This document shows, in pieces, positions 26,760-53,027 of a stretch of DNA of 64,000 bases. The stretch is from contig CAYMBN010000001.1 in NCBI GenBank assembly GCA_964388715.1, positions 12,962-76,961 on the forward strand, read 5' to 3'. A program made the position numbers and the translations under genes. Below the pieces are notes generated by a model. The model was not told the DNA's origin. It saw nothing but the letters and a program-made list of their open reading frames with translations, and ran no database searches. Source of the stretch: an uncultured Methanosarcinales archaeon (GTDB taxonomy: Archaea > Nanobdellota > Nanobdellia > Woesearchaeales > CAYMBN01). Numbering within the stretch: position 1 is the first letter of the stretch; each line of letters opens with the position of its first letter.

Positions 26760-27740
26760 TTACTTGAGTCTGTAAGTGATAGTTTCAACTCCATTGACTG
26801 TTTTTGTTTCTTTGTTAAAGAGATCTCTATAATCACCATGGCTTTGTCCTGATTTTGGATCAGGTCCTTTGCCAGATGCTTTTGCAAGACCACCAACTGC
26901 ATTTATGAAAGCATCATACTCTTCCTGTACTTTTCCAGGTATTTCTTCAGTAGGAGTACTTTGTGGTACTATGACTATAGGAGGGAATACACTTGGTGAA
27001 GCATTTTTTAACTCTTCACTTGCGTTTTCTTCCCAGACTCCATAAACATCTTCTTCTTCGTTATAGAAATCAACATTGGTTTCAGATAGATTTTCGTCAT
27101 TTCCAAAGTCATATGGGGCAACTTTTTTTTGATATACACCATCTATTATATTAGTTAAACTAATATCAACATTAACTCCATCTATTATAACATAAGTTTT
27201 TACACCATCAACAAATGCTTTTGTTTTCTTTAATGATTCAGCATTTTCTGGAGTGATTGGTATTCTAACATATCTTTGAGTGTTTGCTGGGATGTGTGTT
27301 CCATCATAATTCCATCCCATGTTACCAGTTGTGACAGGGAAACAAATACTGTCAGCTGTAACAACAACATTTTTAGGAGTATAAGGTTGGTCTGTAGAAG
27401 GATCACCACCTAAAATATAATCAATTGCTTTTCGAGTGTTGCTAACAGGAGGAAAGAATACTTTATATTTGTTTAATTCAGTTGAATCAATTTCTACAGA
27501 ATCTGGAAAATTTTGTTCAATTGGTAATGAATCTGCTTGTCTTGATTCTGCATCTGATTTGTAAGTTTCATTGAAAACCGTTCCTTGAACTTGTTGAGTT
27601 GTTCCGGTGCCACTACCTCCTCCGCCACCGCCTCCACCACAGCCCATGGCTAAAGGCATGAAAATTAAAAGTCCTCCTACAATAATTACTCTAACAGCTA
27701 CTCCAATAGATGATTTTCTTGTTATATTTTCTAGACTCAT
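26760..27740 (-). CDS. secreted lipoprotein with a poly-Gly linker; last gene of the giant-protein locus
   Basis: N-terminal TM/signal with lipobox LAMGC followed by GGGGGGGGSGTGT. 326 aa. It lies 63 nt downstream of the giant gene. Confidence 0.55.
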   Translation of the reverse strand: MSLENITRKSSIGVAVRVIIVGGLLIFMPLAMGCGGGGGGGGSGTGTTQQVQGTVFNETYKSDAESRQADSLPIEQNFPDSVEIDSTELNKYKVFFPPVSNTRKAIDYILGGDPSTDQPYTPKNVVVTADSICFPVTTGNMGWNYDGTHIPANTQRYVRIPITPENAESLKKTKAFVDGVKTYVIIDGVNVDISLTNIIDGVYQKKVAPYDFGNDENLSETNVDFYNEEEDVYGVWEENASEELKNASPSVFPPIVIVPQSTPTEEIPGKVQEEYDAFINAVGGLAKASGKGPDPKSGQSHGDYRDLFNKETKTVNGVETITYRLK

Positions 27741-27803
27741 TATTTACCCCTCATTGTTTGTTTTCTTATTTCTATATTTAAATCTTTTGTTTTTTCACCA
27801 CTT

Positions 27804-30800
27804 TTAAACAGTTACACTTCCAGTTTGTTGATTATTGTCTTCATTTATTTCTTGGATTAAGTTATCATAATCAGCTGTCACAGTAACTGGGTAAGTTCCA
27901 CTTTCAGTAAATTTAACTAAAGTGTAAACAATTGTATCTTGACCAACTTCAACTGTTAATGGTTCTTTGTTAACTGGGTTATTACCCTCAGGGCCTGTGT
28001 CAATTATCCAGTTAACGTTTTCAGCTTTTTTATTTCCTTTATTTGAGATTATGAATTTAACAAACATATTAGTTCCTATTTTTCTTGCAGGTTCAAAGTT
28101 GCTAACTTCTAGATCTGGTAAAGGATTGACTGTGATTTTAATCCTTTCTGTATCACTAAATTGGTTGTCACTTACTGTGATTCTGAATTTGTGTGTACCA
28201 AAATCACCTGAATCTGTCTGCCAGGTGAATACATTGTCATTTTGTTCAAATCTTGAATCATCTATTGAATATTCAAGTTGATCTTTGTCAGGGTCTGATC
28301 CTTGAACAGTGATAATGATTTCATCTGTTTCAGTATATTCAATTTCATAATCAATTGAATCAATCTTTGGTCTGTGCAGGTTTTGATAATCACATGGATA
28401 AGTGTTGTTTTCTGGTGGATTATTATCATCTTCTAGGTCTGTTAATTCAAAACAATTGTTTATGTCATTATACCAACCATTGATTAAGTTATTTTCCATG
28501 CATCCTGTTTTTTCTTCAACCCATTCAGGAGCACAATAGTCACAGGAAAGTGCTTTGTAATCAGTAAATATTATATCATCAACTTCATCGCAGTTGTGTT
28601 CATCATATTGTGTTAAGGTTCTTATTTGTAATTGAGTATCATTGTTTAAACATTCTGTGTGATCTGACCATTCGCTCCAAGAAGTGTTTGAGAGTAATGG
28701 AGTACATGAATCACATGTTCTTGATTGTGTTTCATTTGCATGTGGGTTTTCTTCAGCACAATTGTAAATGTCATAATAATATTTTGTTCTTGTTTTTAAA
28801 TCATCTATGCACTCACTCCATTCTGTATAATCAAATTCCCAGTTAGGTGTACAATAATCACAAGGGATTGTTTGATAATCAGTGAATGTTAGATTGTCAA
28901 TTTCATTACAATTGTACTCATCATACTGTGTTAATGATTTTACTTGTTCTTTGGTGTTATCACTTTGACATTCAGTATGGTTGGACCATTCACTCCATGA
29001 TGTGTTTGTGAGTAATGGTGTACATGAATCACATTCTTGTGTTTGAGTTTCATTTTCATAAGGATTTTCTTCATCACAGATTTTTGCATCAAAGTAAAAT
29101 TTGGTTCTAGTTTCTAAATCATTTACACACTCACCCCAATCAGTATAATCTGGAAGCCAATCTGGAGTGCAAAAGTTACATGATATTGTTTGGTAATCAG
29201 TGAATGTAGTATTATCAATTTCATTGCATGTTTTTTCATCGTATTGAATTAGTGTTCTAATTTGTTGTTGAGTATCATCTGGTTGGCATTCTGTGTGATT
29301 AGACCATTCTGTCCAGGAAGTATTGGTTAGTAAAGGTGTACAATAGTCACATGTTTGGTTGATTACAGAAGTTGAATTGTACTTAATCTGTATCTCATAT
29401 AAATATAGGTTTCTTCCTGTTACAAAAGACCTTCCATAAATATCAATAGCTAAATCTGAATTATAGGAAATGCATTCTTGTGGTATCTTAATGTCAGTGA
29501 GACTATTAACACTTGAGGTAAACTCTTTAAATGTTGTAAAGGAATTAGTATCATAACTGAAACAATTGAATTTTAATTCTACATTACCCCATGAGCCTAT
29601 TACTTTATGTTGAAGTATAACACCATCTTCAAATTGTGGTAAATAAGAATAATTTACATAAATATGTCCTGATCTTGGCCAACCAGTTGATCCGTCTAAG
29701 TTTGAGTAAGTTGATAAATCACTATCAAATGCTCTTTCATAGTGGGACCATTGTCCAACTTCAATTATACTTTTTTCATTATTAGATTCAACTAACTCTG
29801 TAAATTCTTCACCACATCCCTTAGTGTCATAATAATTTTTAAATTGAATATCAGTTGGTTCACATTCTGTCCAGGTTTCATTCAAAACCCAGTGAGGTGT
29901 GCAGTAATCGCATGCTTGTTTTTGTGTAATATTATTATGTGGGTTAGGTTCTTCGCAATTATTTGAATCATAATAATATCTTATTCTTGATTTAGTATCG
30001 TCTGGTTGACAGTCTGTCCATTCTGTGTAATTAACTTCCCAATTGGGTATGCAAAAGTCACAAGTTACTGTTTGATAATCTTCAAATGTTGTATTTTGGA
30101 TTTCATTACATGTTTTCTCGTCATATTGGGTTAAGGTTCTGACTTGTTGTTGAGTATCATTTGGTTGACATTCTGTGTTGTTGGACCATTCGCTCCATGT
30201 GGTATTGGTTAGTTGTGGTGTGCAATAATCACAAGTTTGATTTATTTGGGTGAAAATTGGTATTTCAGTATGCCACCATATTGCTTCTTCATAAAAGACC
30301 ATTGCAGATGGATTTAAACACATCCATCTATTACCTCCATAAGTACACCCAGTGTTATAATCATTGTCGTACATTTTAGTAGGAGAACTATATCCTGTAC
30401 CTCCGCAAGAAGTTCCTTTAGTTCCTGCGCCCAAATTTTTCCAACCTGTTTTTGTGAGGCATTGGGGTTGGATTCTAAAGGCAGCACATACTCCAACTCT
30501 TAAAATTAAATGATCTTCATCATGATTGTAGCAATCTGAATTTGTATTAATGGAAATATTTTCAAATATTACATTGTCACTTCTATTTTGATATTTTAAC
30601 TGCCATTTTGCATCATAACCCTTCTTTTTTGTATAATTTACATAAAGGAAACCATTGAGCGGGTGGGCTTTGTCAGCTTGTTCTTGGAATAAAAGTACTT
30701 GTTCCATTGGTTCTTCTTCACAATTGTTAGTGTCATACCAATTAGTATATTGAATATCACCTAGTTCACATTCTGTCCAGGTTTCGTTCAAAATCCAATT

Positions 30801-33800
30801 AGGAGTACAGTAATCGCAAGATATTGTTTGGTAATCAGTGAATGTAACATTGTTAACTTCATCACAGGTGTTTTTGTCATATTGCGTTAATGCTCTGACT
30901 TGCTCTTGAGTATCATCTGGTTGGCATTCTGTATTGTTGGACCATTCGCTCCATGAAGTGTTGGTTAGTTGTGGTGTACAGAAGTCACAAGTTACTGTTT
31001 GGTAATCAGTGAAAGTAACATTGTCTACTTCTTTACAAGTATTCTCGTCATACTGAGTTCTTGTTCTACTTTGCATTTGATTATCATTGACTGAACATTC
31101 TGTATCATTTATCCATTCACTCCAGGATGTATTTGTTAGTAATGGTGTGCAGAAATCACATTTGTAAGTATTGTTTTCTGGAAGTTGATCTGATTCTAGA
31201 TTGGTTGTTTCATAACAATTGTTATTGTCTGTGTAAAATTCAATTATTTCATCTGAAACTAAGCAAGATGTGTTATGTGCTACAAAGTCTGGAATACAAT
31301 GGTCACAACTTATTGTAAGGTTATCCATGAATCCTTCAAGGTCTGATTCAAGTTGTGTTTGTGCATGACAATTGTTTTCATCTAATAAATATAATGTGTA
31401 ATTATCTCGGATACTACATTTTGTTTGATGTTCAATCCAGTTTGGTGAACAATAATCGCATTCATAAGTATTGTTTTCTGGTAATGAATCACTTACAAGT
31501 TGAGTTTGTGAATAACAATTGTTATTATCTGTATAGTATTCAATGATTTCATCTGAAGGTGAACATGATGTGTTATGAGCTACAATATCTGGTGTACAAC
31601 AATCATAAAAGATGATTTCAGTTTCATTTGCATGAGGATTTTCTTCTGCACAGTTGTTTGTATCATAATAATATTTTATTCTTGTTTTTAAGTCAGCTTG
31701 GCAGTCGCTCCATTCTGTGTAATTAACTTGCCAATCTGCTACACAAACATCATTAACAGTAACAATCATATATTCATAGGTTTTGGCTTTGTTTTCATCT
31801 TCTGCAATAAAAGTAATATTGTATTTTCCAGCATCATCATAGCCAGGAGTAAAATATAAAGCATAACTATTTTCACCTATTTTGTTTTGAGTAATCCAAT
31901 TAGGAAGATTTTCATAGGAAAGATTAACTTTATCTCCATCTTTATCTGAAACTTGGAATGATATAAGTGTCCCTCCTTGACTTTCATTTAATTCTATATT
32001 GGAAATGGCGGTTATCTCAGGAGGCCTGTTTATATTGTTTACAGTTATAGTGGCAACTTTCTCATCGCTTCCACCTTTACCATCTTCTGCAATAAAGGTG
32101 ATTGGGTAAACTCCTGCTTGGTCAAAATTAGGGGTCCAACTAAATTCACAATAAGTGCCTTGGGTTACTGGGTCATAATGTAAAATACTACAATCAAGTT
32201 CAGCACCTTGTGGTAAGGTTTCAGATGAGTTTAGTTTAACTCTGCTTCCTTCTGGGTCTAATGCTAATATATGGAATGAAACTTTTTTGCCTTCGTCAAC
32301 TTGAGTGTCATCAATATCGTCTATAAAAGGCGCATAGTTAAGCACTTTTAATATAAGGTTGTCATATGTTGGTCCTGGTTGTGAATGTAACCAACCACCA
32401 AGTAATATTTCAGATGTTTCGAATTGAGTATCATTTGTATCTATATCTAAAACAATTGTGTCATCATAATATGCTTTGTAATTACCGTCTCTAAATACAA
32501 GTTTATAATAATGCCAATCTTTATCTCCGTTTAAGTCTGTTTTATATCTGTTATTGTTAACTACTAATAATAAATCATTGTGACCGTTCCATGCTTTACA
32601 ATAATCAGCACCATAACTTAGTGTTTCATTTCCAGATTGGTTTTTGAATCTTACTGTTGCACCTCTACAATCTAATTTGTTTAGGTTTGCATAAAAGCCA
32701 ACTTCAAAGTAATTTGTATTAAGGTTCATTGGTTTGCTTAATCTAGGACTACAGAAACCACAGGTTGGAGTTAAATGATTATCTATAACATCCCAAGTGC
32801 CAACTTTTTTTGTCCAATCATCAATAGAGTCGTCATTAAAATTATCACAGAGTTCATATTCTCCTTCACAATTTTCTTCAGGTATACTTTCTATTACAAC
32901 TATTTTTATTGGACTTGAGGCACTGTATGTACCATCACTTACTGTAACTTCAATATCATATTCACCTGCATCATCGTAATTTGTTTGCCAGATAAATGTT
33001 GAACTGTGGGATTGGAATCTATCGTCGTTAATTGAATAATTTAGATCATCTTCATCTGGATCAGATGCTTCTACTGTGATTATTATTTCATCACCTTCAT
33101 TATATTCTTCTTGATAATTAATTGAATTAATGGTTGGTGCATGTAAGGATTCATAATCGCATTCATAGGTGTTGTTTTCTGGGAGTTGATCTGATTCTAA
33201 ATTAGTTGTTTCATGACAATTATTATTGTCAGTATAATATCCAATAATTTCGTTTGATGTTAAACAAGACGTATTATGTTGAATTGGGTCAGGTATGCAA
33301 TAGTCGCACTGTTCCATTTCTGTAACATTGTCATGAGGATTTGGTTCTTCACAAGTGTTTAAGTCATAATGGAATTGTATTCTTGATTTAGTATCATCTG
33401 ATTGACAATCTGTCCATTCTGTGTGATCTATCTGCCAGTCTGGAGTACAGAAGTCACAGAAGATTGTTTGATAATCTGTGAAGGTAGTATTGTCCACTTC
33501 GTTGCAGGTATTTTCATCGTATTGGGTTAGTGATCTTACTTGTTCTTGAGTGTCATTTGGTTGACATTCTGTATGATTAGACCATTCAGTCCAAGAAGTG
33601 TTTGTTAGTAAAGGTGTACAATAGTCACAGGAGATGGTTCTGTAATCAGTAAATGTTGCATTGTCAACCTCATTGCAGGTGTTTTCATCGTATTGAGTTA
33701 ATGTTCTTGTTTGCTCTTGTGTATCATCAGCTAAACATTCTGTACCATTTATCCATTCACTCCATGAAGTGTTTATTAGAGACGGTGTACAATAATCGCA

Positions 33801-36800
33801 CCAAGCAGTTGTGTCTTCTGGTTTATTACAATCTGAAAGTAAGCTTGTTTGTTCACAACATAAGTTAATATATTCATAAGTTACATCATAGTAATCATCT
33901 GGATGGCAAGTTGAATTTTCGTTTCTCCAAGTTGAGTTACAATAATTACATTCAATTGTTTGATTGTTTGTTTGGTTTTCTAAGTCTGATGCTAGATTTG
34001 TTTGTGCATGACAAGTGTTTTCATCTAAATAATATTCTATATAATTATCCAGTGTTGAACAGTCTGTTTCGTGTTTGATCCAGTTAGGTGTACAATAATC
34101 ACATTGTTCTATTTCTGTAACATTGTCATGAGGATTTGGTTCTTCACAAGTGTTTAAGTCATAATGATATTGTATTCTTGATTTAGTGTCATCTGATTGA
34201 CAATCTGTCCATTCTGTGTGATCTATCCGCCAGTCTGGAGTGCAGAAGTCACAGAAGATTGTTTGGTGATCTGTGAATGTTGTATTGTCTACTTCATTGC
34301 ATGTATTTTCGTCGTATTGTGTTAGTGTTCTTGCTTGTTGTTGAGTGTCATTTGCTAAGCAATCTGTGTTGTTTATCCATTCTGACCATGATGTGTTTGT
34401 TAATTGTGGTGTACAATAATCGCAGGACTGGTTGATTATTGGTGATGATATTTGTTTTTCCCACCATACTCCTGATTCATATAATTTAGCAGAACTATCA
34501 AGACCTCTTGCTAGAGCAAGGAATCTTTCAAATAAGTTTTGCCATCCACCTGAATTATAATTAAAACATTGAGCTTCAAATTCCACATATTCTTCATCTA
34601 TTATTATCAAAGGATCTGTATAGTCTACAAAGAATCTTAATTGTAAAATGCTACTATTTAAACAACCAGATGGGATAGATGCATTGGTAAAATGCTCTTG
34701 ATCCATTACATCTGAATCAAAGTGTATCTTATATTGTACTTTAGCATCTTCTGTATTAAAAGGAATTGAATAATTAAAGAAGTATTCATAAGGTTCTTCC
34801 TGTACCATATTATCATAAGTTGACCAATCATTATCACATGCTTGATCACAATTATCTGAATATCCTATTTCTTGTTCTTGATAGTCCCATAATAAAGATG
34901 AAATGAATTCTTCTTCACACATGTTCAAATCATATACATTTCTGTATTGAATGTCAATTGGATCACATTCTGTCCATGTTTGGTTTAATCTCCAATCCGG
35001 AGTACAAAAGTCGCAAGATATTATTTGGTAATCAGTAATGGTAGTATTGTCTACTTCATCACAGTTGTTTTCATCATATTGTGTTAAAGTTCTGCTTTGT
35101 TCTTGGGTGTCATCAGATAAACAATCTGTATCATTTATCCATTCTGTCCATGAGGTGTTTGTTAGTTGTGGTGTACAGAAGTCACATTGTTCCACTTCTG
35201 TAACATTGTCATAGGGATTAGGTTCTTCACAAGTGTTTGAATCGTAATGGAATTGTATTCTTGATTTTGTATCTCCTGGTTGACAATCTGTCCATTGTGT
35301 GTAATTAATTGTCCAATTTGGTGCACAGGGATTAGGTATATGTTTTATTGATAAGTTAAATATTTCTAATTCTGTTGCTTCTTGAGATTCAATTGTTAAT
35401 GGAATTAAACAATATTTATTTTCGTCAGCTTCACAACTTTCTAATAAACTATTTAACTCATTGTTAAATTCAAGAACTTCTTGGTTGTCAAATATTGAAA
35501 TATCTTTTATTTTCTTATTTTCAAGATAAACTGAAAAATCGTAATATATTGGGCAACCTTCATCTATTTGATTATCACAATCATCATTAATACTATTACA
35601 AATTTCAGTGGCAGCTGGATTTACATTAGTATTAGCGTCATTACAATCAAGATTGTTTGAAACATAACCAGCAGGAGCATTACAAGCTTGTGTTGTTGTT
35701 GAGGAATCACCATATGTGTCTTCATCAGCATCCCTATAGAATGTTGATTGTACATTTTCATCTTCTTCACCATCACAATCATTATCTAAACCATCACAAA
35801 CTTCTTCTTCTGGACCTACTAAACCTTCACAAGTGCCCCATTGTCCATCAGTACATGTTTTTGTTCCGGTTTGACACTCTCCTACGTCAATACCACAGAC
35901 TTCAGTCTCACCATTAATACATTCACAACCACCATCTACTGATCCATCACAATTATCATCAATCCCATTACAAATTTCAGTTGCACCAGGATTTATATTT
36001 GCGTTGTTGTCGTTACAATCTTGATTATTTGAAACATAACCACTTGGTGCACTACAAGCTTGTTTTGTTGTTGAGGAATCTCCGTAGGAATCAGCGTCAG
36101 CATCTCTATAAAATGTTGATTGTACACCTTCATCAGTGCTTCCATCGCAATCATCATCTTTGTTATTACATACTTCTCCTGCATTAGGATTAATATTTCT
36201 GTCAGTATCATCACAGTCATCAGCTTTGCAGATATCAAAGTAATCTCCGTCATACAAATCTTCATCTTGATCACATCTATCTAAACTAGAATCAATTCTA
36301 TAACCACAAGCATCATCTCCAACAGGGATGTAAGTTTTAAGATAATAATATAAAACACCTTCCCGTGCTTCAAATTCTATTTTCTCTTGTTCTGTTCCTG
36401 AGTTATGTGATTCTCCGATAGGCTCACTCGCTGAACATGAATCATAAAGTTCAATATCATAATTTGTATCACATCCTTCCATATTATTTCCAATGAATAA
36501 ACCCATACCATTTTCATTTGCGAAAATTTTATGCCAAGCCATACCTACACTTACAGGCCAACTAGCTCCAAAAGTTTTTTCAGAAGCACTTGAACAAGTA
36601 TCTCCTTGAGTAACAAAACTTTCTGTTACGTAATCTGGATCTTTCCTTAATGCAAAACTACTATTTACAGTTAAAGAATATTTTGGCATTTTGAAATAAA
36701 CAGTATTGTTTCCTGCTTCATTATAAGTTAAAACTTTTGATGTTGTTCCATCTGTAAAGGTTGATAATTCTATATTACAGTCTAGTGAACAGGTTGTGTA

Positions 36801-42800: not shown

Positions 42801-44087
42801 AACAACTTCATCATAATTATCTCTTTCATATATTTCTTTTATAACTGTAGAATTTTCAAATGAATCATAACAGTTTCTGTCTGTAAAATTTCCATCAGCC
42901 ATTGAAGGATAATCATCAAGGTTAATTGGAGTTGAATCTGAAAGAGAATATTCAATGTTTTTAACAATGCTTCCTTTTGGTAATTTGTGTTTTCTTATGG
43001 TGTATATGTTGATAATGTTTGGATTATCATAGTCATAAGAAAAGTCTGTTGAATTAATTAATCTAAAGGTTTTATTGCTAGTGTTTGAGTTTCTTACATT
43101 TGCAATGTTATAATCAAAGTTGAGTGTGTTTTCGAATTTTAGGTTTTCGTCGGATTGAATACTAAATCCTTGATAATTATAGTCTGCTGGAGAAACATAA
43201 TATTCTTTACATGGATTAAACCACTCATCCAAGTCCCACCAACCATGCCCTTTTTTAATGTATTCACTGTAAGCGTCAGGAACATTGACTCTGGTTAATG
43301 GATTTCCGTATAATGAGTAGGATTTTAAGACTAAGCCTGGCATGTTCTGGTCGTCTGGGTCTGTTGTTGTGTAATATTTTGATCGTGATCTTCTATAAAT
43401 ATCTCCAATTCTTTCTTGTTGGTCTAGATTACATAAAAGTGCTGTCATAAATTCAGATGATCTTACATCTTTTGGAGCGACAATTGTTGAATATCTTGTT
43501 AATTCACTAACATAACTTGGTTCATGTGGTAGTGCGAGTCCGCCCATTTCAATGTTCATTAAAAATAATGGGTTTGTTTCTGCGAATTTGTCTTTCCATT
43601 CTTTGACATTTTCTGGATAAATTTTGTCTGATTTAGTAATTTTTTTAGCATATATTCCAAAATCATCACTATCCATGTAAGATTCTAAGACAAATAATTC
43701 GTTTGGTTGGAATTTATTGATTTCATTGGTTATGGAATCATAACCACCTGTCCATTTTTTTGGTTTGTCCCAGAATTTTAGGTAAGACCATCTTGATCCT
43801 TCTGGAATATCGCCTTTGATGTTGTAATTATCTTCATCAAATCCTGCAACAATCATCTTGTTGCTAGTGAAATCTTCTAAGAAAGGCAATCTACTTGCTA
43901 AGTGTGTTGCGTGATGGATGTCAATTTGTTTTGTATCCAATTGATTGATTAAATCGTATGGTGAATCACCAACTAATCTTGAGATTGATGAATCTTCTTT
44001 AACAGTACCAGAAGTTCTTACTGCAGAGACTGTACTTATAATTAGTAAGATGATGATGCACATTCCTGTTATTATTTTTTTATTCAT
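27804..44087 (-). CDS. giant secreted Cys-rich modular surface protein (5427 aa), adhesin-like
   Basis: An uninterrupted 16.3-kb ORF with an N-terminal signal peptide ([22 protein letters not shown]). It carries cadherin/Ig-like modules (e.g. [20 protein letters not shown]), three LamG/ConA-like jelly-roll modules, a Cys-rich NNCGxCGxxC region, three MopE-like CDDxDxxINPxAxExCNxxDDDCDG repeats, a tandem array of more than 25 disulfide-type modules (WSEWS...[10 protein letters not shown], CTPDW.....TKSRI.[15 protein letters not shown]), and a C-terminal CARDB domain. It has very many NxS/T sequons. Confidence 0.85.
   Translation of the reverse strand: [5427 protein letters not shown]
27807..28130 (-). 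other. CARDB-like C-terminal domain of the 5427-aa protein
   Basis: [34 protein letters not shown].....[21 protein letters not shown] matches the CARDB pattern. Confidence 0.6.
28550..37300 (-). repeat. intragenic tandem array of related 50-65-aa Cys-rich modules, with near-identical stretches at the nucleotide level
   Basis: The reverse complement of TSWSEWS (ccattc[ga]ctccatga-type) recurs at roughly 28.67, 28.99, 29.30, 30.20, 30.94, 31.11, 33.59, 33.76, 34.38, 35.14 and 37.25 kb. At least 11 copies of ...[22 protein letters not shown].C and at least 8 copies of CTPDW....TKSRI.[15 protein letters not shown] were counted. Confidence 0.8.
35550..36320 (-). repeat. three MopE-like putative metal-binding repeats (CDDxDxxINPxAxExCNxxDDDCDGxxDEG)
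   Basis: [60 protein letters not shown] and [30 protein letters not shown]. Boundaries are approximate. Confidence 0.6.
39280..39830 (-). repeat. EGF-like Cys-rich region with three NNCGxCGxxC units
   Basis: [20 protein letters not shown] and [10 protein letters not shown] within a roughly 180-aa Cys-dense stretch. Boundaries are approximate. Confidence 0.5.
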
Positions 44088-44638
44088 ATTATCCAGTTTT
44101 TCCTCTTTTCCTTAACTTCTTGTAAGCTAAGTATTTCTGATTCAGGAACATTTTTTAGATCCATTAATTTATCATAAAGAGCTTTGATCTCTGGATCTGT
44201 TGATCTTTTATCAAGGTCTTTGTGTTTAAGTTTCAAGAGTTCGTAAGTTATGATGAATATTCTAAAGAATTGTTCTTTGATTTTCTTAATAAAATCTTGT
44301 TTGGAAATGTTGTAATCTAGTTTTCCTTCTTTGTTAGGGATCATTAGCTCTTTGTCTAATATTAATTTGTCTAAGAAGATTTTACCTTTAAGATCATATA
44401 AGAAATTGACTACTGCTTCTTCAATAGGAATATTTTCGTATTTTTTATAATTCTCTTTAATTAATTCAAATATTGTCTTTATGACCCAGGACCATTGCGC
44501 AAAGAAATTCCTATGATTAAAAAATTCATAACAAATTTCATGTTTGCAAAAATTTCTTAGGTATTTGCTTTCTTTTACTATTGTTATTGCTGGATGATGT
44601 TCTTTCCTTTCCATTTTTATATTAAAACTTTCATTCAT
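44084..44638 (-). CDS. hypothetical cytoplasmic protein (184 aa) between the two giant genes
   Basis: Lys-rich ORF with no signal peptide. It starts 10 nt after the 2792-aa gene stop, and its own stop overlaps the 5427-aa gene start by 4 nt (ATGA). Confidence 0.5.
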   Translation of the reverse strand: MNESFNIKMERKEHHPAITIVKESKYLRNFCKHEICYEFFNHRNFFAQWSWVIKTIFELIKENYKKYENIPIEEAVVNFLYDLKGKIFLDKLILDKELMIPNKEGKLDYNISKQDFIKKIKEQFFRIFIITYELLKLKHKDLDKRSTDPEIKALYDKLMDLKNVPESEILSLQEVKEKRKNWII

Positions 44639-44648
44639 TTAGTGCACC

Positions 44649-47600
44649 TCATACAAATATTGATAATAATTCGTCTGTATATCTTATTATTCTGTCAACT
44701 ACACTTGATTGTGCTACGTCATCAGCAATATCTAATAATCCACTTGCCCGATGGTATTCATCTGCTAAATTGCTGATAGCTGCTCCTTTAACACCTTTTC
44801 TTTTTATTATTCCCATGAATTTTTTATATACTCCAGGATTATGCCCTTTTGCCTGTGCTAATAAATTAGCTGTTCTATCTGGTAATACGGCAGGGTTGTC
44901 AATCAATGTTTCAAAATGAACTTTAGGATATGGAAGATTGTCAACATCAGATAAAACATGACCTGCAATGTGTTTTTTTGCAACGCTCTCTGTTAAAAAT
45001 TCTTCAAATTCTAATGGTAACTGTGATCTAACTTCTACAGGCAACTTTTGATTAATAAAATTGTGAGCAAATTCATGATTAATTACATTTTCTAGAACTT
45101 CTTTTGGATTAGCATTTTTTGAAACATAAATAATTTGTTCTTCAGCGTCAAGTCTGGCAGGAATTCCTTCTGGTAGATTATCAACAAATTCAATCTTCTT
45201 GATCTTTTTAGCTGCGTCATCTAGTGGGAGAGAGTTGTCTGCTTGTCCAATTGTTTTGATTAATTTCTTTTGCTGGACAGCATCATAAGTATCTGGAACT
45301 TGTTTTAGGAAATCATCAATACTACCATAAGCTTTTTTAATTTGAACGATTCCATCATCAAGATGCTTTAATTCATCTAAACTATCGCTTACCTTTACAG
45401 TAGCTTCTAAAGCATCGTCTGCATATTTGAGTGTATCATCGCTGAACTTTGCTAATTCTTCAATATCAGCTTTTTTCCAAGTCTCTGTTGTTTTATCCAT
45501 AATCTTTAATAACTTACTAGATGAATCTCCTTTCTTACTAGCTATCTTTGCTATGCTTTCTAGGACGTCATCACCTGCACTAGCGTGTTTCTTGACAACA
45601 CTTCCAATTGCATCTAATAGTTCGTCATTGTTTGTTAAGGCTGCTCTTTTGATGTTGGATTTCATAAAGACTTTTGTGAATGGTTTTATGAAATCGTCGT
45701 CAGCTATTTTTCCTGCCGAGTCAATGTTCTGTGCAATGACTTTAATGAATTGTGGATATTTTGCTTTTGGAACTTTAGTAAGAACACTTGCAGCATCACC
45801 TGATTTTACAGTGAATGATGTGGCTGCTCTTCTGTATAATGCGATTTCATCAGCACTTCCTGCCATTGTATCAACTGTTTTCATGAACTTGGCAACCCTG
45901 ATCTTACCTACTGCTTTACCTACACCATAAGAAGCAATTGGTGCTAATGTTAAACCACATTCAACAACCTCCATTGTGCCATTAGGAAGTCTGCCTCTTC
46001 TTACATAACATGTATCGATTGCATCTATTCCTGAAACTACCAAGTCTGTTATAAGAACTGCTTTTACAACTGCAGCACCACCGAGGTAGCCTGCACTTGC
46101 ACCAAAACTGATTGGGATTAAAGCTATTGATACTGCAGTAATAGTGTCGTGGAAAAGCATGTAACCTCTTCCATGGAGACTTTCATAAGTTCCATTTGGT
46201 AGGATTTCATCTGCAAAGCCATTGATTGTTTTTGGATTGTTTGTATTGAAAATGATTGCAGCACTGTCACCGTTCCAAACACTTGGTTCAATAGAGATAA
46301 CATCTTCAAACTCGCCTGTTGTGTACATTGGGTAACAGTTTAGAGCAGGGTTTGTTTCTTTTGTTCCAATAATAATTGGTACGTCTAGTGCATCGAATAA
46401 CCACCAATCTCCAAAGAGATTGAAATCATTACAATTAAGTTCACTACCTTGGATTTCACTGAAATATTCTTTTTTGTCAACTAATTTTTCTGCTACTAAT
46501 TTATTTTTGAAATTTTCAATTGCACTTCGCATTTCAGAAGTTACTGTGTTAGGAAGAATTATTTTTACTTCATTACCTCTTGTTGCTTCGTCATGTCTGA
46601 ATAATTCGTCTATGTTTGAGAAATCATATTCCATGTTTCTTTGTACCATGCTTTGGTCAGTGTACATGTTTTTGATGACAATATCGTCTGGCAATAATTT
46701 ACCAGGATCTGGGAAAGTCATGTCACTTAGTTCAGGACTAACTTGATCATAGAGTTGTTTCATAGGGCCTAATCCACTTATATAATAGAGATATTTTGCA
46801 TTAGACTTGATTGTGTTGTACCAAGGTCTTAACCAAGCAGGAAGTGAACCTGCTCTTATTGAATAAATTTCTCTACTGTGTGGAATAACATAATCATCTC
46901 CAACTAAAACTACATTACCTGCAAAACTTAATTGGTCTTGAATAAACTTGGTTACTTCTTGTGCATAAGAATTATCATTCATCTTTGGGAATAATCTGTC
47001 TTCAGAATATTCACTAAAAGGTATGTCAAAAGGATGTGTGTTATTATATTCATCTAAATGTTGAAATTGTAGATCTAAATCATGGACAACACCATAGTTT
47101 GCTGCTGCTTCTTCATAAACCTTGGTTAATAATAATTTGACTGCTTTTTCATCATTATAACGTCTTAATAGTTGTTTTTTGTTTGTGATATAAGCAATAA
47201 CTGGATCTTGTCCAATTGTATAGATTCTTTGTGAATCTTTGCCAAAAGTAAAAAGGTATGTTTTACTTGGTAATGAATTTACATAGAAATAACATTTATT
47301 ATCACCTTGATTATAATTTTGGTTTAAGCATGCATCTCCTTCAATTAATTCAAAGTTTGTTTCATCATATTCAAGTTGTGTGTCAGGGTCAACATAACCA
47401 TTGATTTTTACATTAACTCCCATAATAGTATGTTGTTGTTTGTTAAGTGTTATTCCTGGAGGTGCATCGTCTATTACAAGATCATAATTTCCAATATTAA
47501 CACAAGCTTCTTGATCAGCCATACATATTTGTTTTCTTGTGCAACCTGTGACATACATCCAATCTTTGTATTTTTCTTGTTGTTCACATCTGTATAATGC

Positions 47601-50600
47601 ATTGTCTTTGCATTTGAATTCGTCAATTGTGTTACATTGATCTTCATATTCTATTGGAATACAATCGTTAAAAATTTGTCCAAATCTACATTCTGTATCT
47701 GGTTCATGGTCAGTACAATCTTCATCACTATGGCATTGACAGTTTTCAGATGAACCATCTGGTAAACCTGTGCAAGGTCCATTGAATTCACATTTACCAT
47801 TACCTAAATTACAGGTTTCATTGTCAAAACATTTGTAAGCATCTTCTAAACATGAACATTCTGGGAAGGTTCCAAAAGGATGTACACATTCTCGTTCACC
47901 AACAATGTATGTTGCATAATTAAAATGTTCATAATTTCCTCCACTAGGATGGAGATAAGTGCCTGCAATGATTCTAAATTCATCATCCCAAGCACTTGCT
48001 TTTGGAGTATTATCATCACAATCATTCACTGAACTTCTGTTTGGAGCAATTACTTCAAATTCAACATCTTCTGTTTGGCCTGGTTCAAGTTCTTCAATTA
48101 TTTTGTAATCATAAAATTTGTTTCCAGGACAGATTTCGATAATGTTATCAATAACTGTTTGAGTTGAAAAAGGTTCTAAAGGATAAATAATATCTCTCCA
48201 ACTTTCTGGAACAACAGCACCTTCAATAAATATGTTTCCTGTAACTGTTCCTTGATTTTTTACTTGTGCTGTGAAAGTAACTACTTGATTTTCTTCTGCT
48301 TCATCTGGATTAACATTTTTTATTGTTTCTATGATTATGTCAGAATAACAATCATCTTCACAATTATATTCTGTTTCACCATCTTCGCAAATACCATCTC
48401 CGCATAATGGCACACATTCATGTGTTGTTGTATCACAACCACCTGGACAGTCTCTAAACTTCCATAAACCATCTTCTTCTGTACAATATAAACCTCCTCT
48501 TTGGTCACATGCATTTAGATGACCCCACAAGTTTGAACAAGGTGCCCAACCAAGATTATCTTCACAGAAATATTGAGGATAAGCTGTGTCTTCGCTATCA
48601 TCTTCATCATCACCTGAACAACAGAATGTATCAACTTCATTACATGTTTTCCAAAAGTAACTTGTACATTGATTATCATTACAAATTGGAGTGACTTCTA
48701 TGCTTTGTTCTCCTGTTGATGAATAATAATCTTCACCACATGCAGAGTATGCACCTGCTATTACAACAAATGAATCTCCCCAAGCAGAGTTTGGTGGTGG
48801 GTCTTGATCACATGCGTCAACTGATATTTTTGATGGTGCTTTTAAATTAAATGCAGAGTATCTTTGTTCACCTGGATCACGTGTTACTTCTTTAGTTGCA
48901 AAATAAGTGTTGTTTTCACAGCAACCTGTGATTCGATGTGAGCTAGATGTTTGACCAGTGAAATCTTGAGTATAAAAGTCTGAAGCATACATGCCTACTT
49001 CAACTTTTCCTGTTTGAATTACTGTTCCATCATTTCTTATTGAAACATTAATTGTAATATTTTCATCTTCCTCAACAGAGGATTGTAATTGGAAAAAGCC
49101 TACTATTACTAAACAATCTTTTGGACAATCTTCTCCTGGGTGACAGGTTCCATCACCGCATGAAGGTGTGATACATTGACCATCAGAACAACCATGAGTG
49201 CAATCTTCTGTTAAATAAGAACAACTACCACTTAAGCAAGATCCACTATATTTTCTTGTGTCGCCATCACATGTATCATCACAAGTTACTCCTGTACATG
49301 GGTCAGGGTTACATTGTTCACCAGAACAACCATGTTCACATTCTCTAAACATCCATAAGCCATCTTCTTGTGTACAATATAAGTCATCTCTTTGTTCACA
49401 TCCTTCTAGATGTCCCCATAGGTTTGAACAAGCTGACCAGTCAAAGTTATCTTCACAATAATATTGTGGATAAGCTGTGTCAGAATTTCCATCACTCTCA
49501 TCACCTGAACAACAAAAGGTATCTACTTCATTACATGTTCTCCAATGGTAGCTTGTACATTGGTCATCATCACAAATAGGTGTAATATCTATACTTTGCT
49601 CTTCTGTTGTTGAGTCATAACCACTGCCACACTCTGAATATGAGCCTGCAATTATTACAAATGAATCTCCCCAAGCAGAGTTTGGTGGTGGGTCTTGATC
49701 ACATGCGTCAACTGAGAGTTTAGATGGGGTTGTTAAATAAAAAGTAGTAGTTTGTCTCTCACCTGCTCCGCGAGTTACTTGTCTTGTATCAAAATATTTG
49801 TTTTCTTCGCAACAACCTGTAATGCCTTCGGAACTTCCGTGTGTTGTAAAATCTTGTGTATAAAAATCACTAGAATAAATGCCTACTTCTACCTTACTTG
49901 TTTGAGAAACTGTTCCAATGTTTTCTATTATAACTTTAACTGTAACATTTTTATCTTCTTCAAATGAAGATGGTAATTCGTAAAAGCCAGCTATAACTAA
50001 ACAATCTTTTGGGCAGTTTTCTCCTTGGTGACATGTTCCATCACCGCATGTTGCTGTGATACATGATCCACTGGAACAACCGTGGGTACATGATTCTGTG
50101 TTTGAATAATAACAAGTGCCTCCTGAACAATATCCATTATATTTTCTTGTATTACCATCACATGTATCACCACAATTTTTATTTGCACATGGATCAACAT
50201 CACATTGGTAAGTGCTTGGGTTGCATCGTTCATCAGAGTCGCAACTTCTATAGCTTTGCCAAGAGTCCCATGAAGTACTTCCACTGCAAGAAGAACTTGA
50301 TCCAGAACAATATCTTCTTTTGTATCTTCTACCTACATCATCTCCTAAATCAGTGCCCCATGGACAACCATACTCTGTATCATATTGATAATTACATGTC
50401 CAAGATGATGGTCTATAATATCCATAAGAATCACAACAACTTCCAGAAGTACAGTCTCTTAAATCAACTTCAAATTCATATTCAACAACAGTATTTTCTG
50501 GAATGTTTTTTGATATTTCATGGTTATAATCTTCATTAGTTACTAAATTAAGACCTTTTATTTGTATTTCGTGAGTTCCAGCTGAAAGTTCATAATCTGG

Positions 50601-53027
50601 TTCAACTACCCATCTAGTATTACCTGCAAGATCTTCAAAATAATCATATAATGTACCATCTATCCATACGCTCATCCAATAATTAGAAGGTTCATGGATG
50701 TCCATGTATACTCTTGCATAGCCGTTTTCTTCTTCTTCTTCTTCAAATGATGCTTCAAAATAATAATATTCAGAACCATAATCTCCTGAGTAACCGTAAA
50801 TTTTAACATAAACTTTGTCTGCATTTTCTATTGGTTCAGATACTGTTTCATCACTGCCTTCTCCATTGTAGGATCCATCTATAAAGTTATTACACGGGCT
50901 ATAAACTTCTAGTTCATAATCTCTGTTACTAGGCACTTCTAAATTAACAGTTATGATTCCTGTTCCAGATCCTGGTATGTCAAACTCAAACCAATCATCA
51001 TCTTCGTCGTGATCAATCTTTGATTGATATCTTGTATCTAAATTTAGATTTTCAGCGTCACTACATTCATTGTTTTGTATTGAAAAGTCATCTGATTGAC
51101 AAGTTTCAGCTTGATAGGTTTCATGATTATTAATGGATGTATTAAGATTAAGGTTTATGCTTAATCTTTTAATAAGTTCTATATCTTCTTTTCCTAATTT
51201 TCTTCTTTTAATAATAATAGTATTATTAGTTTTGTTAATAACTTCAAAAGTATAATTGAATTCTGAGCATCCATCATTACATAATGTTAATTTGATGTTG
51301 TGAGTGCCTATGGTAGAAGTATCTGTGAGATTATAATAAAAACCATAGCCTTGGAAGGTTTGTTCAGCAACCTTGCTTAGGTTGTTTTCAATTAATAATG
51401 TTATATTATCATAATAGTCTTCACTGTTGAAACTAATAAAACTGGTTTCATTTAAATTGATAACTTTTCTAAAATCAAGTTCTATGTTGGTGTCAGTGGT
51501 TTGGTTGGTCTTATTAGTTTTATTGGTTTGGTTTGTTTCATTTATTACAGTTGTTTCATTACTTTCTTGTGTTTCATTAATTTCTAGGAAGAGTTTCTCA
51601 GCGTCGATGAATCCGCTTCCGTAATAGATGTCTTTGCCTTCTTGACCAAGGTCAATTGCTTTGTTTTCAAGTAATTGTTTTATTTCAGAAGGATTAAGAG
51701 AATTGTTTTTTTCTAATAATAATGCAGTGATTCCCGCTATGTGTGGAGCTGACATTGAAGTTCCGTCTAGTGTTTCATAAGTGTTTCCATAGAATGAAGA
51801 AGTGATTTCTTTACCAGGAGCAACTATGTCTGGTTTTAGGTATTGACCAAAGTCTTGGCCTGATGAAAAGCATGCCCATTCAAGATTATCATCAACAGCG
51901 CCAACTGTGATTGCATCTTTGAAATTACCAGGAGTTGTTACTCCAACAAAACCTTTACATCTTTCACTAGGGCATGTTTCTCCACAATTACCAGCAGAGA
52001 TAACAACAGTAGTACCCATGTCAATTGCATCTTTAAGTGTTCCAATTACAGGACTGTTTGCATCATTGAATGGTGCTCCTATGCTTAAAACAATAACATC
52101 TGCACCGTCATCTGTTTCAGAATTGTTATCAGGGTCAATTGCCCAGTTAATTCCTGCAATAATGGTTTCTGTTGAACCTTTTCCTTTACTTGTTAAGACT
52201 TTTGCATTAATAAGAGATGCATCTGGTGCAACACCTTTATACTCACCATTACCTAAAGCAATACCTGCAACATGTGTTCCATGACCATTTTTATCATTAG
52301 TATCTCCCTCATTAGTAAATTCTTTGGATAAAATAGTTTTGTTAAGAAACATTTCGTGATTTTCATCAATACCTGTGTCAAGTACAGCTATTTTGATACC
52401 TTTTCCTGTGAAATTAAGGTTCCATGGGATAGGAATATTCATTAGGTCAACTGAGCTGTCTAACATTAAACTGTATTCTCTGTTTGGCCAGGTACTGTTA
52501 ACAGAAATATCCTTAGTGACTTCTTCAACTTTGGATGCTGGGATTTCAGCAGAAATAGTTTTACCTACATCATAAGTTGCTTTTACTTTTCCACCTGTTT
52601 GTTTAATTTTGTCAGAAATTTCTTGAAATTGAGATTCATTTTGTACTACAATAATAATATCAACATTTGATTCATTGTCATCTTCTATTTTTTTGTTAAC
52701 TAATTTGTGAACTTTGTTATTATCTATATTGTTTTCTGGTGGTCTTGGAGAGCTTCCACCACCACTGCCACCTCTGAAGGTTATTATGGGTTCTTCAGTG
52801 GTTTCTGTTATATTTGGTTCTTGTGTATCATTGAAATCAAAGTCTAGTAGTATGATATTTGCTGTGGTTTGATTAGTTTCTTGCACTGGAGCCTTTAATT
52901 CAATGGTATTATTAGATATTATGGTTGGAATGAGTTCTTCTTTAGGGTTTTGAAGCAAAATTGGAGTGATGATGATAAAGAAAAGAAATATAGTGATTAA
53001 TATAGGTATTTTAACCTGCCTGACCAT
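44649..53027 (-). CDS. giant secreted subtilisin-like (S8) serine protease with Cys-rich duplicated modules, CARDB-like domains, a membrane-spanning segment and a C-terminal HExxH-containing tail (2792 aa)
   Basis: Signal peptide, then an I9-like propeptide. S8 catalytic triad blocks: AVLDTGID (Asp about residue 217), NGHGTHVAG (His about 249), GTSMSAPHIAG (Ser about 424). PPC-type domain (DHDEDDDWFEFDIPG). A roughly 295-aa tandem duplication. Hydrophobic segment ITAVSIALIPISFGASAGYLGGAAVVKAVLITDLVVSGI. A 455-aa tail with VINHEFAHNF. Confidence 0.85.
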   Translation of the reverse strand: MVRQVKIPILITIFLFFIIITPILLQNPKEELIPTIISNNTIELKAPVQETNQTTANIILLDFDFNDTQEPNITETTEEPIITFRGGSGGGSSPRPPENNIDNNKVHKLVNKKIEDDNESNVDIIIVVQNESQFQEISDKIKQTGGKVKATYDVGKTISAEIPASKVEEVTKDISVNSTWPNREYSLMLDSSVDLMNIPIPWNLNFTGKGIKIAVLDTGIDENHEMFLNKTILSKEFTNEGDTNDKNGHGTHVAGIALGNGEYKGVAPDASLINAKVLTSKGKGSTETIIAGINWAIDPDNNSETDDGADVIVLSIGAPFNDANSPVIGTLKDAIDMGTTVVISAGNCGETCPSERCKGFVGVTTPGNFKDAITVGAVDDNLEWACFSSGQDFGQYLKPDIVAPGKEITSSFYGNTYETLDGTSMSAPHIAGITALLLEKNNSLNPSEIKQLLENKAIDLGQEGKDIYYGSGFIDAEKLFLEINETQESNETTVINETNQTNKTNKTNQTTDTNIELDFRKVINLNETSFISFNSEDYYDNITLLIENNLSKVAEQTFQGYGFYYNLTDTSTIGTHNIKLTLCNDGCSEFNYTFEVINKTNNTIIIKRRKLGKEDIELIKRLSINLNLNTSINNHETYQAETCQSDDFSIQNNECSDAENLNLDTRYQSKIDHDEDDDWFEFDIPGSGTGIITVNLEVPSNRDYELEVYSPCNNFIDGSYNGEGSDETVSEPIENADKVYVKIYGYSGDYGSEYYYFEASFEEEEEENGYARVYMDIHEPSNYWMSVWIDGTLYDYFEDLAGNTRWVVEPDYELSAGTHEIQIKGLNLVTNEDYNHEISKNIPENTVVEYEFEVDLRDCTSGSCCDSYGYYRPSSWTCNYQYDTEYGCPWGTDLGDDVGRRYKRRYCSGSSSSCSGSTSWDSWQSYRSCDSDERCNPSTYQCDVDPCANKNCGDTCDGNTRKYNGYCSGGTCYYSNTESCTHGCSSGSCITATCGDGTCHQGENCPKDCLVIAGFYELPSSFEEDKNVTVKVIIENIGTVSQTSKVEVGIYSSDFYTQDFTTHGSSEGITGCCEENKYFDTRQVTRGAGERQTTTFYLTTPSKLSVDACDQDPPPNSAWGDSFVIIAGSYSECGSGYDSTTEEQSIDITPICDDDQCTSYHWRTCNEVDTFCCSGDESDGNSDTAYPQYYCEDNFDWSACSNLWGHLEGCEQRDDLYCTQEDGLWMFRECEHGCSGEQCNPDPCTGVTCDDTCDGDTRKYSGSCLSGSCSYLTEDCTHGCSDGQCITPSCGDGTCHPGEDCPKDCLVIVGFFQLQSSVEEDENITINVSIRNDGTVIQTGKVEVGMYASDFYTQDFTGQTSSSHRITGCCENNTYFATKEVTRDPGEQRYSAFNLKAPSKISVDACDQDPPPNSAWGDSFVVIAGAYSACGEDYYSSTGEQSIEVTPICNDNQCTSYFWKTCNEVDTFCCSGDDEDDSEDTAYPQYFCEDNLGWAPCSNLWGHLNACDQRGGLYCTEEDGLWKFRDCPGGCDTTTHECVPLCGDGICEDGETEYNCEDDCYSDIIIETIKNVNPDEAEENQVVTFTAQVKNQGTVTGNIFIEGAVVPESWRDIIYPLEPFSTQTVIDNIIEICPGNKFYDYKIIEELEPGQTEDVEFEVIAPNRSSVNDCDDNTPKASAWDDEFRIIAGTYLHPSGGNYEHFNYATYIVGERECVHPFGTFPECSCLEDAYKCFDNETCNLGNGKCEFNGPCTGLPDGSSENCQCHSDEDCTDHEPDTECRFGQIFNDCIPIEYEDQCNTIDEFKCKDNALYRCEQQEKYKDWMYVTGCTRKQICMADQEACVNIGNYDLVIDDAPPGITLNKQQHTIMGVNVKINGYVDPDTQLEYDETNFELIEGDACLNQNYNQGDNKCYFYVNSLPSKTYLFTFGKDSQRIYTIGQDPVIAYITNKKQLLRRYNDEKAVKLLLTKVYEEAAANYGVVHDLDLQFQHLDEYNNTHPFDIPFSEYSEDRLFPKMNDNSYAQEVTKFIQDQLSFAGNVVLVGDDYVIPHSREIYSIRAGSLPAWLRPWYNTIKSNAKYLYYISGLGPMKQLYDQVSPELSDMTFPDPGKLLPDDIVIKNMYTDQSMVQRNMEYDFSNIDELFRHDEATRGNEVKIILPNTVTSEMRSAIENFKNKLVAEKLVDKKEYFSEIQGSELNCNDFNLFGDWWLFDALDVPIIIGTKETNPALNCYPMYTTGEFEDVISIEPSVWNGDSAAIIFNTNNPKTINGFADEILPNGTYESLHGRGYMLFHDTITAVSIALIPISFGASAGYLGGAAVVKAVLITDLVVSGIDAIDTCYVRRGRLPNGTMEVVECGLTLAPIASYGVGKAVGKIRVAKFMKTVDTMAGSADEIALYRRAATSFTVKSGDAASVLTKVPKAKYPQFIKVIAQNIDSAGKIADDDFIKPFTKVFMKSNIKRAALTNNDELLDAIGSVVKKHASAGDDVLESIAKIASKKGDSSSKLLKIMDKTTETWKKADIEELAKFSDDTLKYADDALEATVKVSDSLDELKHLDDGIVQIKKAYGSIDDFLKQVPDTYDAVQQKKLIKTIGQADNSLPLDDAAKKIKKIEFVDNLPEGIPARLDAEEQIIYVSKNANPKEVLENVINHEFAHNFINQKLPVEVRSQLPLEFEEFLTESVAKKHIAGHVLSDVDNLPYPKVHFETLIDNPAVLPDRTANLLAQAKGHNPGVYKKFMGIIKRKGVKGAAISNLADEYHRASGLLDIADDVAQSSVVDRIIRYTDELLSIFV
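44652..46016 (-). other. C-terminal 455-aa tail distal to the hydrophobic segment, predominantly alpha-helical, with HExxH (HEFAH about 45063-45077)
   Basis: VLENVINHEFAHNFINQ, with Glu-rich LEFEEFLTES 20-30 residues downstream. There are no Cys residues here, in contrast to the ectodomain. Confidence 0.5.
48420..50200 (-). repeat. intragenic tandem duplication (2 x roughly 880-900 nt) encoding paired Cys-rich plus CARDB-like modules
   Basis: DPCANKNCGDTCDG...CEHGCSGEQC is followed by PDPCTGVTCDDTCDG...CPGGCDTTTHEC with the same order of motifs (CLVI.GF, VEVG.Y.SDFYTQDFT, VDACDQDPPPNSAWGDSF, CNEVDTFCCSGD, LWGHL). Plus-strand shadow ORFs at 48509 and 49370 are also alike. Confidence 0.75.
51588..52460 (-). 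other. S8 subtilase catalytic domain within the 2792-aa protein
   Basis: Asp/His/Ser blocks as above, with the oxyanion-region sequence ISAGNCGE. Coordinates are approximate, derived from residue counting. Confidence 0.75.

Follow-up and report, generated by a model that had tools for sequence, protein, structure and literature searches.

The 64,000-nucleotide (nt) stretch of archaeal DNA analyzed here (contig CAYMBN010000001.1, hereafter the window) carries on its minus strand a string of four co-directional genes, encoding two giant proteins, G1 and G2, a small protein between them, S184, and a putative lipoprotein, L326. In transcription order, G1 (44649-53027, 2792 amino acids (aa)) is followed by S184 (44084-44638, 184 aa), G2 (27804-44087, 5427 aa), and L326 (26760-27740, 326 aa), all four being present in the list of open reading frames (ORFs) without any internal stop. 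Reading the junctions from the sequence, we observe a 10-nt gap containing GAGGTG between the G1 stop and S184, a 4-nt overlap (ATGA) between S184 and G2, and a 63-nt gap between G2 and L326. The string occupies 26,268 of the 64,000 nt, which corresponds to 41% of the window. An original prediction, made from the letters of this DNA, had described the ORFs, their lengths, their junctions and tight coupling, and their share of the window exactly as we find them. The first three genes are an oversized copy of a three-gene cassette (G1, small ORF, G2) that is conserved across DPANN archaea.

Searching exhaustively with HMMER for homologs of residues 1850-2792 of G1, we retrieved a DPANN-restricted family of 139 cluster representatives, mostly of 1000-3900 aa. 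Its members combine a membrane-proximal module with a hydrophobic stretch and a 250-550-aa tail of cytoplasmic-type composition. About half of the apparently full-length members also possess a peptidase S8 head. A scan of the GTDB species genomes yielded 44 related loci, nearly all in metagenome-assembled genomes (MAGs) of Woesearchaeota or Nanoarchaeota, and a few in Aenigmat-, Micr- and Altiarchaeia. This distribution supports a DPANN origin of the window and, together with a GC content of about 32%, agrees with the archaeal, AT-rich, small-genome source that had been proposed. The loci closest to the window G1 are L006 and L005 (58-59% identity), and several MAGs contain two cassettes, e.g. 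L008 with L018, and L016 with L028. The MAGs of nine loci (L012, L015, L019, L022, L030, L036, L039, L041, and L042) bear the title "uncultured Methanosarcinales archaeon", although the cassettes in them group with those of DPANN archaea; these titles are probably a labelling artefact of that bin collection.

Gene order was counted in the 28 related loci that extend more than 1 kb downstream of the G1-like gene. A homolog of the N-terminal head of G2 lies downstream, on the same strand, in every one of them (28/28), so that the synteny check suggested with the original prediction returns the order G1-like, small ORF(s), G2-like in all informative loci. A hidden Markov model (HMM) of the head (aa 28-628) gives E-values from 1e-60 to 1e-176, with matches of this range in 26 loci. 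Between the two large genes there are one to five small ORFs; the usual arrangement is a single ORF of 150-300 aa that overlaps the stop of the G1-like gene at its start and the start of the G2-like gene at its end. L006 has, in this order, a G1-like protein (2351 aa), a 241-aa ORF, a 126-aa membrane protein, and a G2-like protein (2325 aa), the latter being 49% identical to G2 over the first 855 aa.

G1 starts with an N-terminal hydrophobic leader (52941..53027, aa 1-29, Kyte-Doolittle value 2.89; this and all further features of the four genes lie on the minus strand). The Peptidase_S8 domain (51612..52406, aa 208-472) is the only Pfam family found in G1 (PF00082, E-value 1.9e-55, 188.7 bits against a gathering cutoff of 21.8) and is mycosin-like in NCBIfam. 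Its catalytic motifs are in place, namely VLDTG (D217), HGTH (H249), SAGN (N347), and GTSMS (S424), which upholds the subtilase label given to this protein before, and with an intact triad the protease is apparently active. Farther downstream, Cys-rich repeats of ~297 aa (47937..50276, aa 918-1697) occur as two close copies and a diverged one, 53-76% identical to each other by self-BLAST; such repeats are also present in family members. The conserved membrane-proximal module (46152..47480, aa 1850-2292) comprises a beta-sandwich and a flavodoxin-like alpha/beta domain, and contains a GDD..P motif that is invariant in the family (alignment A2). Its fold resembles tail-anchored BcsB and an archaeal S-layer anchoring domain, with no match at E<=1e-3, and searches with a profile of the module and with the G1 C-terminus retrieved nothing specific from the PDB sequences. 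No known trafficking or pre-toxin domain was detected in G1 with Pfam.

Immediately after the module comes a hydrophobic stretch (45903..46151, aa 2293-2375), which is a putative membrane anchor according to hydropathy and family conservation. Two cysteines of this anchor region (D.C ... W.C), which flank the hydrophobic segments, are kept family-wide, though the tail is otherwise Cys-free. The ectodomain contains 4.6% Cys and 34 N-glycosylation sequons and has a net charge of -10 per 100 aa, whereas the ~450-aa tail contains 0.2% Cys and one sequon and has a net charge of about 0 (-0.9) per 100 aa. This sharp switch in composition at aa 2293-2375 supports a membrane-spanning G1, the tail of which, beyond the anchor, would be cytoplasmic. 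G1 had been called a secreted protein; the hydrophobic stretch and the cytoplasmic-type tail behind it do not fit a protein that is simply secreted.

The tail itself consists of two parts. Part A (45396..45902, aa 2376-2544) is helical and common only to the closest orthologs, with 41-43% identity to L005 and L006. The C-terminal HExxH domain (44652..45395, aa 2545-2792) has the sequence HEFAH at 2651-2655. Among 17 extracted homologs of this domain (alignment A1), HExxH is kept in 13 and the Glu residue is invariant; a conserved F-[DE]-E-[FL] motif is found ~40 aa downstream of HExxH. The matches to zincins (SprT-like, IrrE, acutolysin) are weak and at the motif level only, and we regard the domain as zincin-like with a putative metalloprotease activity. 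In the AlphaFold2 (AF2) model of aa 1850-2792, which has a mean predicted local distance difference test (pLDDT) score of 72, the beta-sandwich, the flavodoxin-like alpha/beta domain, and the helical HExxH domain (pLDDT >90) are confident, and the hydrophobic region is unreliable.

The tail is also the part of G1 that is exchanged between relatives. Grouped by their C-terminal domains, 87 family proteins form nine or more unrelated classes. BLAST clustering assigns 16 proteins to the HExxH class, which relatives also have at their C-terminus, and jackhmmer clustering of 27 loci groups the window G1 with the HExxH-tail loci L008, L010, L029, and L044. The largest class, with 17 proteins, gives sub-threshold Pfam matches to Scabin-like, NarE, and Pertussis_S1; a profile of nine of its sequences matches the toxin TreX with an E-value of 4.1e-11 and, next in rank, ScARP, ArtA, Scabin, and the cholera/LT A chains. 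The motifs R, STS, and ExE of ADP-ribosyltransferase (ART) toxins align, and this profile evidence identifies the largest tail class in the relatives as a bona fide ART toxin domain. Three further classes have an invariant D-x9-E-x-K motif in common; they were not confirmed as nucleases, a PDB profile search having returned none.

Tail class does not follow the phylogeny of the module. Pairs with modules of 59-67% identity bear unrelated C-terminal domains and unrelated downstream ORFs, as in the window G1 compared with L006, or L005 compared with L006, and only 31% of the pairs with more than 45% module identity have the same tail domain. In two family proteins, P0004 and P0057, the tail extends for ~800-1000 aa after the module without any Pfam match; these long tails may hold further effector classes.

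S184 (44084..44638) stands in the conserved slot of the tail partner, as a soluble protein coupled to its neighbors on both sides. It has no N-terminal hydrophobic leader, in line with the cytoplasmic location predicted for it, and it matches no family in Pfam, NCBIfam or the PADLOC models. Likewise, phmmer and jackhmmer found no relative of S184 in the 44 loci. The small partner ORFs of the family form only small clusters, with no Pfam family among them. Among the 27 loci, all nine pairs with homologous first-downstream ORFs also have the same tail class (Fisher p 3e-11, a value that is confounded and may be inflated by the relatedness of the loci). By analogy with systems in which such a gene follows the toxin domain, S184 may be the inhibitor or immunity protein that belongs to the tail effector. 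The partners of two other HExxH tails (L010:2953-3255 and L041:2841-3119), of 92-100 aa, are rich in CxxC pairs like zinc ribbons, unlike S184.

G2 is a protein with 4.5% Cys, an N-terminal hydrophobic leader, and no C-terminal hydrophobic segment. Its conserved N-terminal head (42204..44006, aa 28-628) consists of an alpha/beta region followed by beta-sandwich domains, with four invariant cysteines, C192, C266, C379, and C413 (alignments A3 and A5). In the AF2 model of the head (pLDDT 67), aa 290-613 form beta-sandwiches, mostly at 75-90, and the first 290 aa are poor because the underlying alignment is shallow, with 5-6 true homologs from a word-indexed search. The fold matches of the head are generic (MG/FN3-like only); it has no relative in Pfam or among PDB sequences, a head profile against the PDB giving nothing specific. 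Homology between the G1 module and the G2 head was considered and rejected (hhalign probability 1.5%). One relative of the head, the 1551-aa protein P0145, carries Pfam Laminin_G_1, _2, and _3 domains.

Beyond the head, the window G2 is a long array of modules. It includes MopE-type, putatively metal-binding repeats (35559..36020, aa 2690-2843, Pfam E-values 1.8e-17 and 3.5e-17) and a C-terminal CARDB domain (27822..28118, aa 5324-5422, Pfam 3.5e-08), with no membrane anchor after it. The Pfam scores above gathering are 63.7 bits for MopE, 34 for CARDB, 64 for He_PIG, and 44 for Big_9; PKD and weak cadherin-like modules also occur, and a myxobacterial-type Cys repeat of NCBIfam is found at 1635-1700, in the Cys-rich 1400-1700 region. 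The MopE, CARDB, and Ig/cadherin-like modules expected in G2 were thus recovered, but not all of the modules named with them. The supposed TSP1-like units come down to a WSxW motif, with TSP1_CFP_C scoring 18.3 bits over 24 residues against a cutoff of 27, and for LamG and EGF, a search of G2 in ten overlapping segments returned nothing at E<=0.5 apart from one related family, 3keto-disac_hyd (E 0.028).

G2 further contains a private 4-Cys repeat array (28368..37640, aa ~2150-5240), interrupted by Ig-like and other inserts. Its units are 50-58 aa long, with four invariant cysteines in the pattern CTPxLTNTSWSEW..C..R..YD..C..C. A 21-unit profile of this repeat matched no PDB chain even at E<=10 and found nothing in ~1500 related DPANN ORFs, and on these searches the repeat is private to this lineage. 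Reading the repeat as TSP1 was rejected at the sequence level, as it has four cysteines instead of six and no PDB match. The complete G2-like proteins of the relatives have a leader in 20 of 20 cases and no anchor in 17 of 20, with a median length of 1042 aa and 0.4-1.3% Cys. At 5.2 times this median, the window G2 is, by sequence comparison, a roughly five-fold, Cys-rich, lineage-specific expansion of a conserved family. It is among the largest archaeal proteins on record; for comparison, halomucin has ~9000 aa and the largest SPEARE protein 8553 aa (PMC6642349).

SPEARE proteins, described in Nanohaloarchaeota, have an ectodomain with a serine protease and adhesion domains, cross the membrane close to the C-terminus, and carry an enzymatic domain in the cytoplasm (Hamm et al. 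2019, PMC6642349). G1 resembles them at the level of the layout, being a giant DPANN protein with an N-terminal serine protease, adhesion domains, and a predicted membrane segment near the C-terminus. SPEARE-like intracellular regions have been reported in Woese-, Aenigm-, and Micrarchaeota and in Altiarchaeales (PMC6642349), a spread that mirrors that of the G1 family. Nevertheless, the window G1 ends in an HExxH domain instead of the type III restriction-enzyme-like domain, which is the most conserved part of SPEARE proteins, and it contains no LamG or BC-toxin-like part; a partner ORF and a G2-like neighbor have not been described for SPEARE. The combination of modules at this locus had been called undescribed, which holds for the private repeats but not for the overall kind of protein, as it resembles SPEARE. 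A description of the cassette was not found in our literature search, although a survey of archaeal polymorphic toxins (Makarova et al. 2019, mBio) may overlap with it.

The second likeness is to polymorphic toxins (CdiA/Rhs/LXG, and ART effectors such as TreX). As in these, a large conserved body bears a C-terminal domain that is exchanged between close relatives, the tail domains are of a toxin class (ART, in relatives) or, at motif level, metallopeptidase-like and nuclease-like, and a small co-varying gene lies immediately downstream. Subtilisin is also among the processing peptidases of polymorphic toxins (Zhang et al. 2012, PMC3482391). In contrast to polymorphic toxins, the cassette has a hydrophobic anchor ahead of its variable domain and is followed by a G2-like secreted partner that is obligatory. 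It shows no known trafficking or pre-toxin domain and no match to a known immunity family, and it is archaeal and DPANN-restricted. What our locus adds to both SPEARE and polymorphic toxins is this obligatory G2 partner and, in the window, the exceptional lineage-specific expansion in size. A polymorphic-toxin-like organization has also been reported for the VARTIG module of Thermococcales (PMC8416519), an archaeal locus built around a large surface protein of Ig domains, with a C-terminus that is hypervariable and downstream genes that vary; the lineage and the proteins are different, and what varies there is an Ig domain instead of an enzymatic tail.

Considering these features together, we favor a reading of the locus as a SPEARE-like, polymorphic-toxin-like cell-contact cassette with an effector/immunity pair, a reading to which we would commit about half of our confidence. 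A cell-surface, host-contact role is plausible; that G1 and G2 dock, that the tail and S184 act as effector and immunity protein, and that the effector reaches a host are steps that we infer. G1 would be the anchored part, with a large, acidic, Cys-rich ectodomain that carries the S8 protease and adhesion-type repeats. The module would sit on the hydrophobic anchor, and the Cys-free tail would reach across the membrane and end in an exchangeable domain, here the HExxH domain, with S184 as the cognate inhibitor or immunity partner of this tail effector. G2 would be the unanchored secreted partner, its 600-aa head probably docking on the G1 ectodomain and its lineage-specific repeat arm (Ig-like, MopE, CARDB, and private 4-Cys repeats) giving reach and binding to another cell. 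The cassette might then attach to the envelope of a partner or host cell and open it by proteolysis; once membranes or cytoplasms connect, the other cell would come into contact with the tail effector, in the way proposed for SPEARE.

Several points weigh against this reading. S184 is an orphan, without a relative in the GTDB genomes or in a metagenome scan; hhalign found no relation between S184 and the other HExxH-class partners, and the small ORFs next to HExxH-class tails are heterogeneous. No known immunity or defense family was found among the small ORFs, S184 included (Pfam, PADLOC), and the co-variation of tail and partner is confounded by locus relatedness, as stated above. The D..ExK tail classes are nuclease-like at the motif level only. 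The hydrophobic stretch of G1 may represent one, two or three segments, the AF2 model being unreliable there. Polymorphic toxins of the classical type are secreted in full and do without an obligatory G2-like partner, and we know of no archaeal delivery route.

A broader version would make the cassette a DPANN-wide, so far unrecognized contact-dependent effector system. In this version, a giant, membrane-anchored protease-adhesin would present, on the cytoplasmic face, a swappable toxin domain (ART, zincin-like, or nuclease-like), held in check by a co-evolving partner and directed at the host via the cytoplasmic bridges of these symbionts, the G2 family would provide target recognition, and SPEARE would be one branch. 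We consider this extension possible but rather doubtful. The cassette bears on how DPANN archaea recognize, attach to, and exploit their hosts; to our knowledge, no DPANN surface machinery has been characterized biochemically. With the comparison made here, a striking pair of giant genes becomes a recurrent three-gene unit with two family-defining domains, the membrane-proximal module of G1 and the head of G2. The favored reading predicts an effector/inhibitor pairing between the tail domain and the product of the following gene, the effector in relatives being a recognizable ADP-ribosyltransferase toxin. If true, it would extend the logic of polymorphic toxins to symbiotic archaea, and would provide candidate host-manipulation effectors and a marker set to find such loci in metagenomes.

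The alternative that survives best is the one contained in the original prediction, that of a plain adhesin and protease surface machinery, where S184 and the tail would have a housekeeping or assembly function, e.g. as a chaperone or anchoring partner, and no effector would be involved. The S8, Ig-like, CARDB, and MopE domains and the leaders of G1 and G2 fit this well, as do the conservation of tail part A among close relatives and the fact that neither S184 nor the window tail matches a known toxin or immunity family. Such a machinery leaves unexplained, however, why tail domains are exchanged between close relatives, why one of these domains is of an ART toxin class, and why the downstream ORF changes with the tail class, and we consider it unlikely.

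Less probable still, and in our view quite improbable, is a two-component S-layer or envelope scaffold, hugely decorated in the window, in which G1-like proteins would be SlaB-like anchors and G2-like proteins a SlaA-like canopy. The arrangement does recall SlaA/SlaB of Sulfolobales, where one of two adjacent genes encodes a C-terminally anchored stalk and the other a glycosylated outer protein without an anchor and with many Ig-like domains. The DPANN cassette differs from SlaA/SlaB, with which it has no sequence homology, by its enzyme domains, its polymorphic tails, the gene for a cytoplasmic protein between the two large genes, and its presence in several copies per genome. Two cassettes in several MAGs are not what is expected of one dominant pair per genome, lengths and domain content vary widely with about half of the anchors carrying a protease, and toxin-type polymorphic tails are unexpected of a lattice anchor. 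The fold matches that might argue for an S-layer are weak, none reaching E<=1e-3.

We regard as very unlikely that the cassette is a self-directed defense or abortive-infection sensor, whose ectodomain would sense a virus or an envelope insult and activate the tail in its own cell, the small ORF acting as antitoxin or regulator. A tail of cytoplasmic-type composition, effector classes (ART, HExxH, nuclease-like) that are typical of defense systems, and a small partner that is tightly coupled and co-varies with the tail are all consistent with such a sensor. Yet no PADLOC model matches, giant adhesin-rich ectodomains, an S8 protease, and a secreted partner that is obligatory set the cassette apart from known defense sensors, and the cassette is restricted to host-dependent DPANN lineages.

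The integrity of the long ORFs was judged from the DNA and from other assemblies. At the GC content of the window, the chance of a stop per random codon is ~7.6% (calculated by hand), so that open frames of 5427 and 2792 codons are not due to chance. The DNA repeats within G2 are 60-88% identical and none is exact, which argues against a collapsed exact repeat. The same locus is found in at least four independent assemblies: S184 and its flanking genes are identical on ENA, JGI (two samples), and Logan contigs, and G1 is called identically at 2792 aa on two of these. Two short contigs, L002 (JGI 3300009405) and L003 (Logan SRR8062331), both end at G2 residue 1050 (window ~40938), the start of the Cys-rich repeat part, where assemblers evidently break; the full 16.3-kb ORF of G2 therefore comes from the long ENA-type assembly only. 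A chimera of collapsed or mis-joined repeats, the refuting case named with the original prediction, could draw on the coincident end of these two independent contigs and on the size of G2 relative to its relatives, but it is extremely improbable given 16.3 kb of 32%-GC DNA without a stop, internal repeats that are this divergent, the same gene lengths in another assembly, and N- and C-terminal ends that are collinear with those of relatives.

L326 (26760..27740), the last gene of the string, encodes a putative lipoprotein with an N-terminal leader, a lipobox-like LAMGC, and a Gly8 linker, and matches no family in Pfam or NCBIfam. The Gly-linker lipoprotein of the original prediction is thus present, but it does not belong to the conserved unit: no homolog of L326 occurs in the 44 related loci, where lipobox proteins are only sporadic and at other positions, and the lipoprotein was rejected as a conserved cassette member. 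A lipoprotein gene also adjoins that of the lactococcal S8 protease PrtP, a surface-anchored multi-domain enzyme of ~2000 aa with the lipoprotein PrtM; PrtP differs from G1 in having a sortase anchor and no cytoplasmic tail, and L326 differs from PrtM in having no peptidyl-prolyl isomerase domain and in not being conserved with the cassette. Just upstream of the G1-like gene of L006 (L006:1131-5887), a coupled pair with a 4-nt overlap encodes a 1442-aa protein, with weak similarity to the G1 repeats and CARDB, and a 143-aa lipoprotein with a Gly/Ser linker.

On the other side of the locus, the intergenic region upstream of G1 (53028..53181, no strand assigned) is common to G1 and a divergent PP-loop ATPase gene, and contains the TATA-box-like element TTTATAAA, a putative promoter. 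Further co-directional genes follow L326, among them NUDIX, bPH_2, and GT2, and look unrelated to the locus. A few kb downstream, on the opposite strand (20598-22652, plus), lies the gene of a 684-aa secreted protein, which has a lipobox-like leader and contains the Beta_propel domain in full length (PF09826, 1.9e-158). Near the start of the window (720-4459, plus), we observe a histidine-themed cluster made of tRNA-His (720-793), a histidine/aromatic ammonia-lyase (1585-3129, Pfam 1.5e-158), and histidyl-tRNA synthetase (3176-4459).

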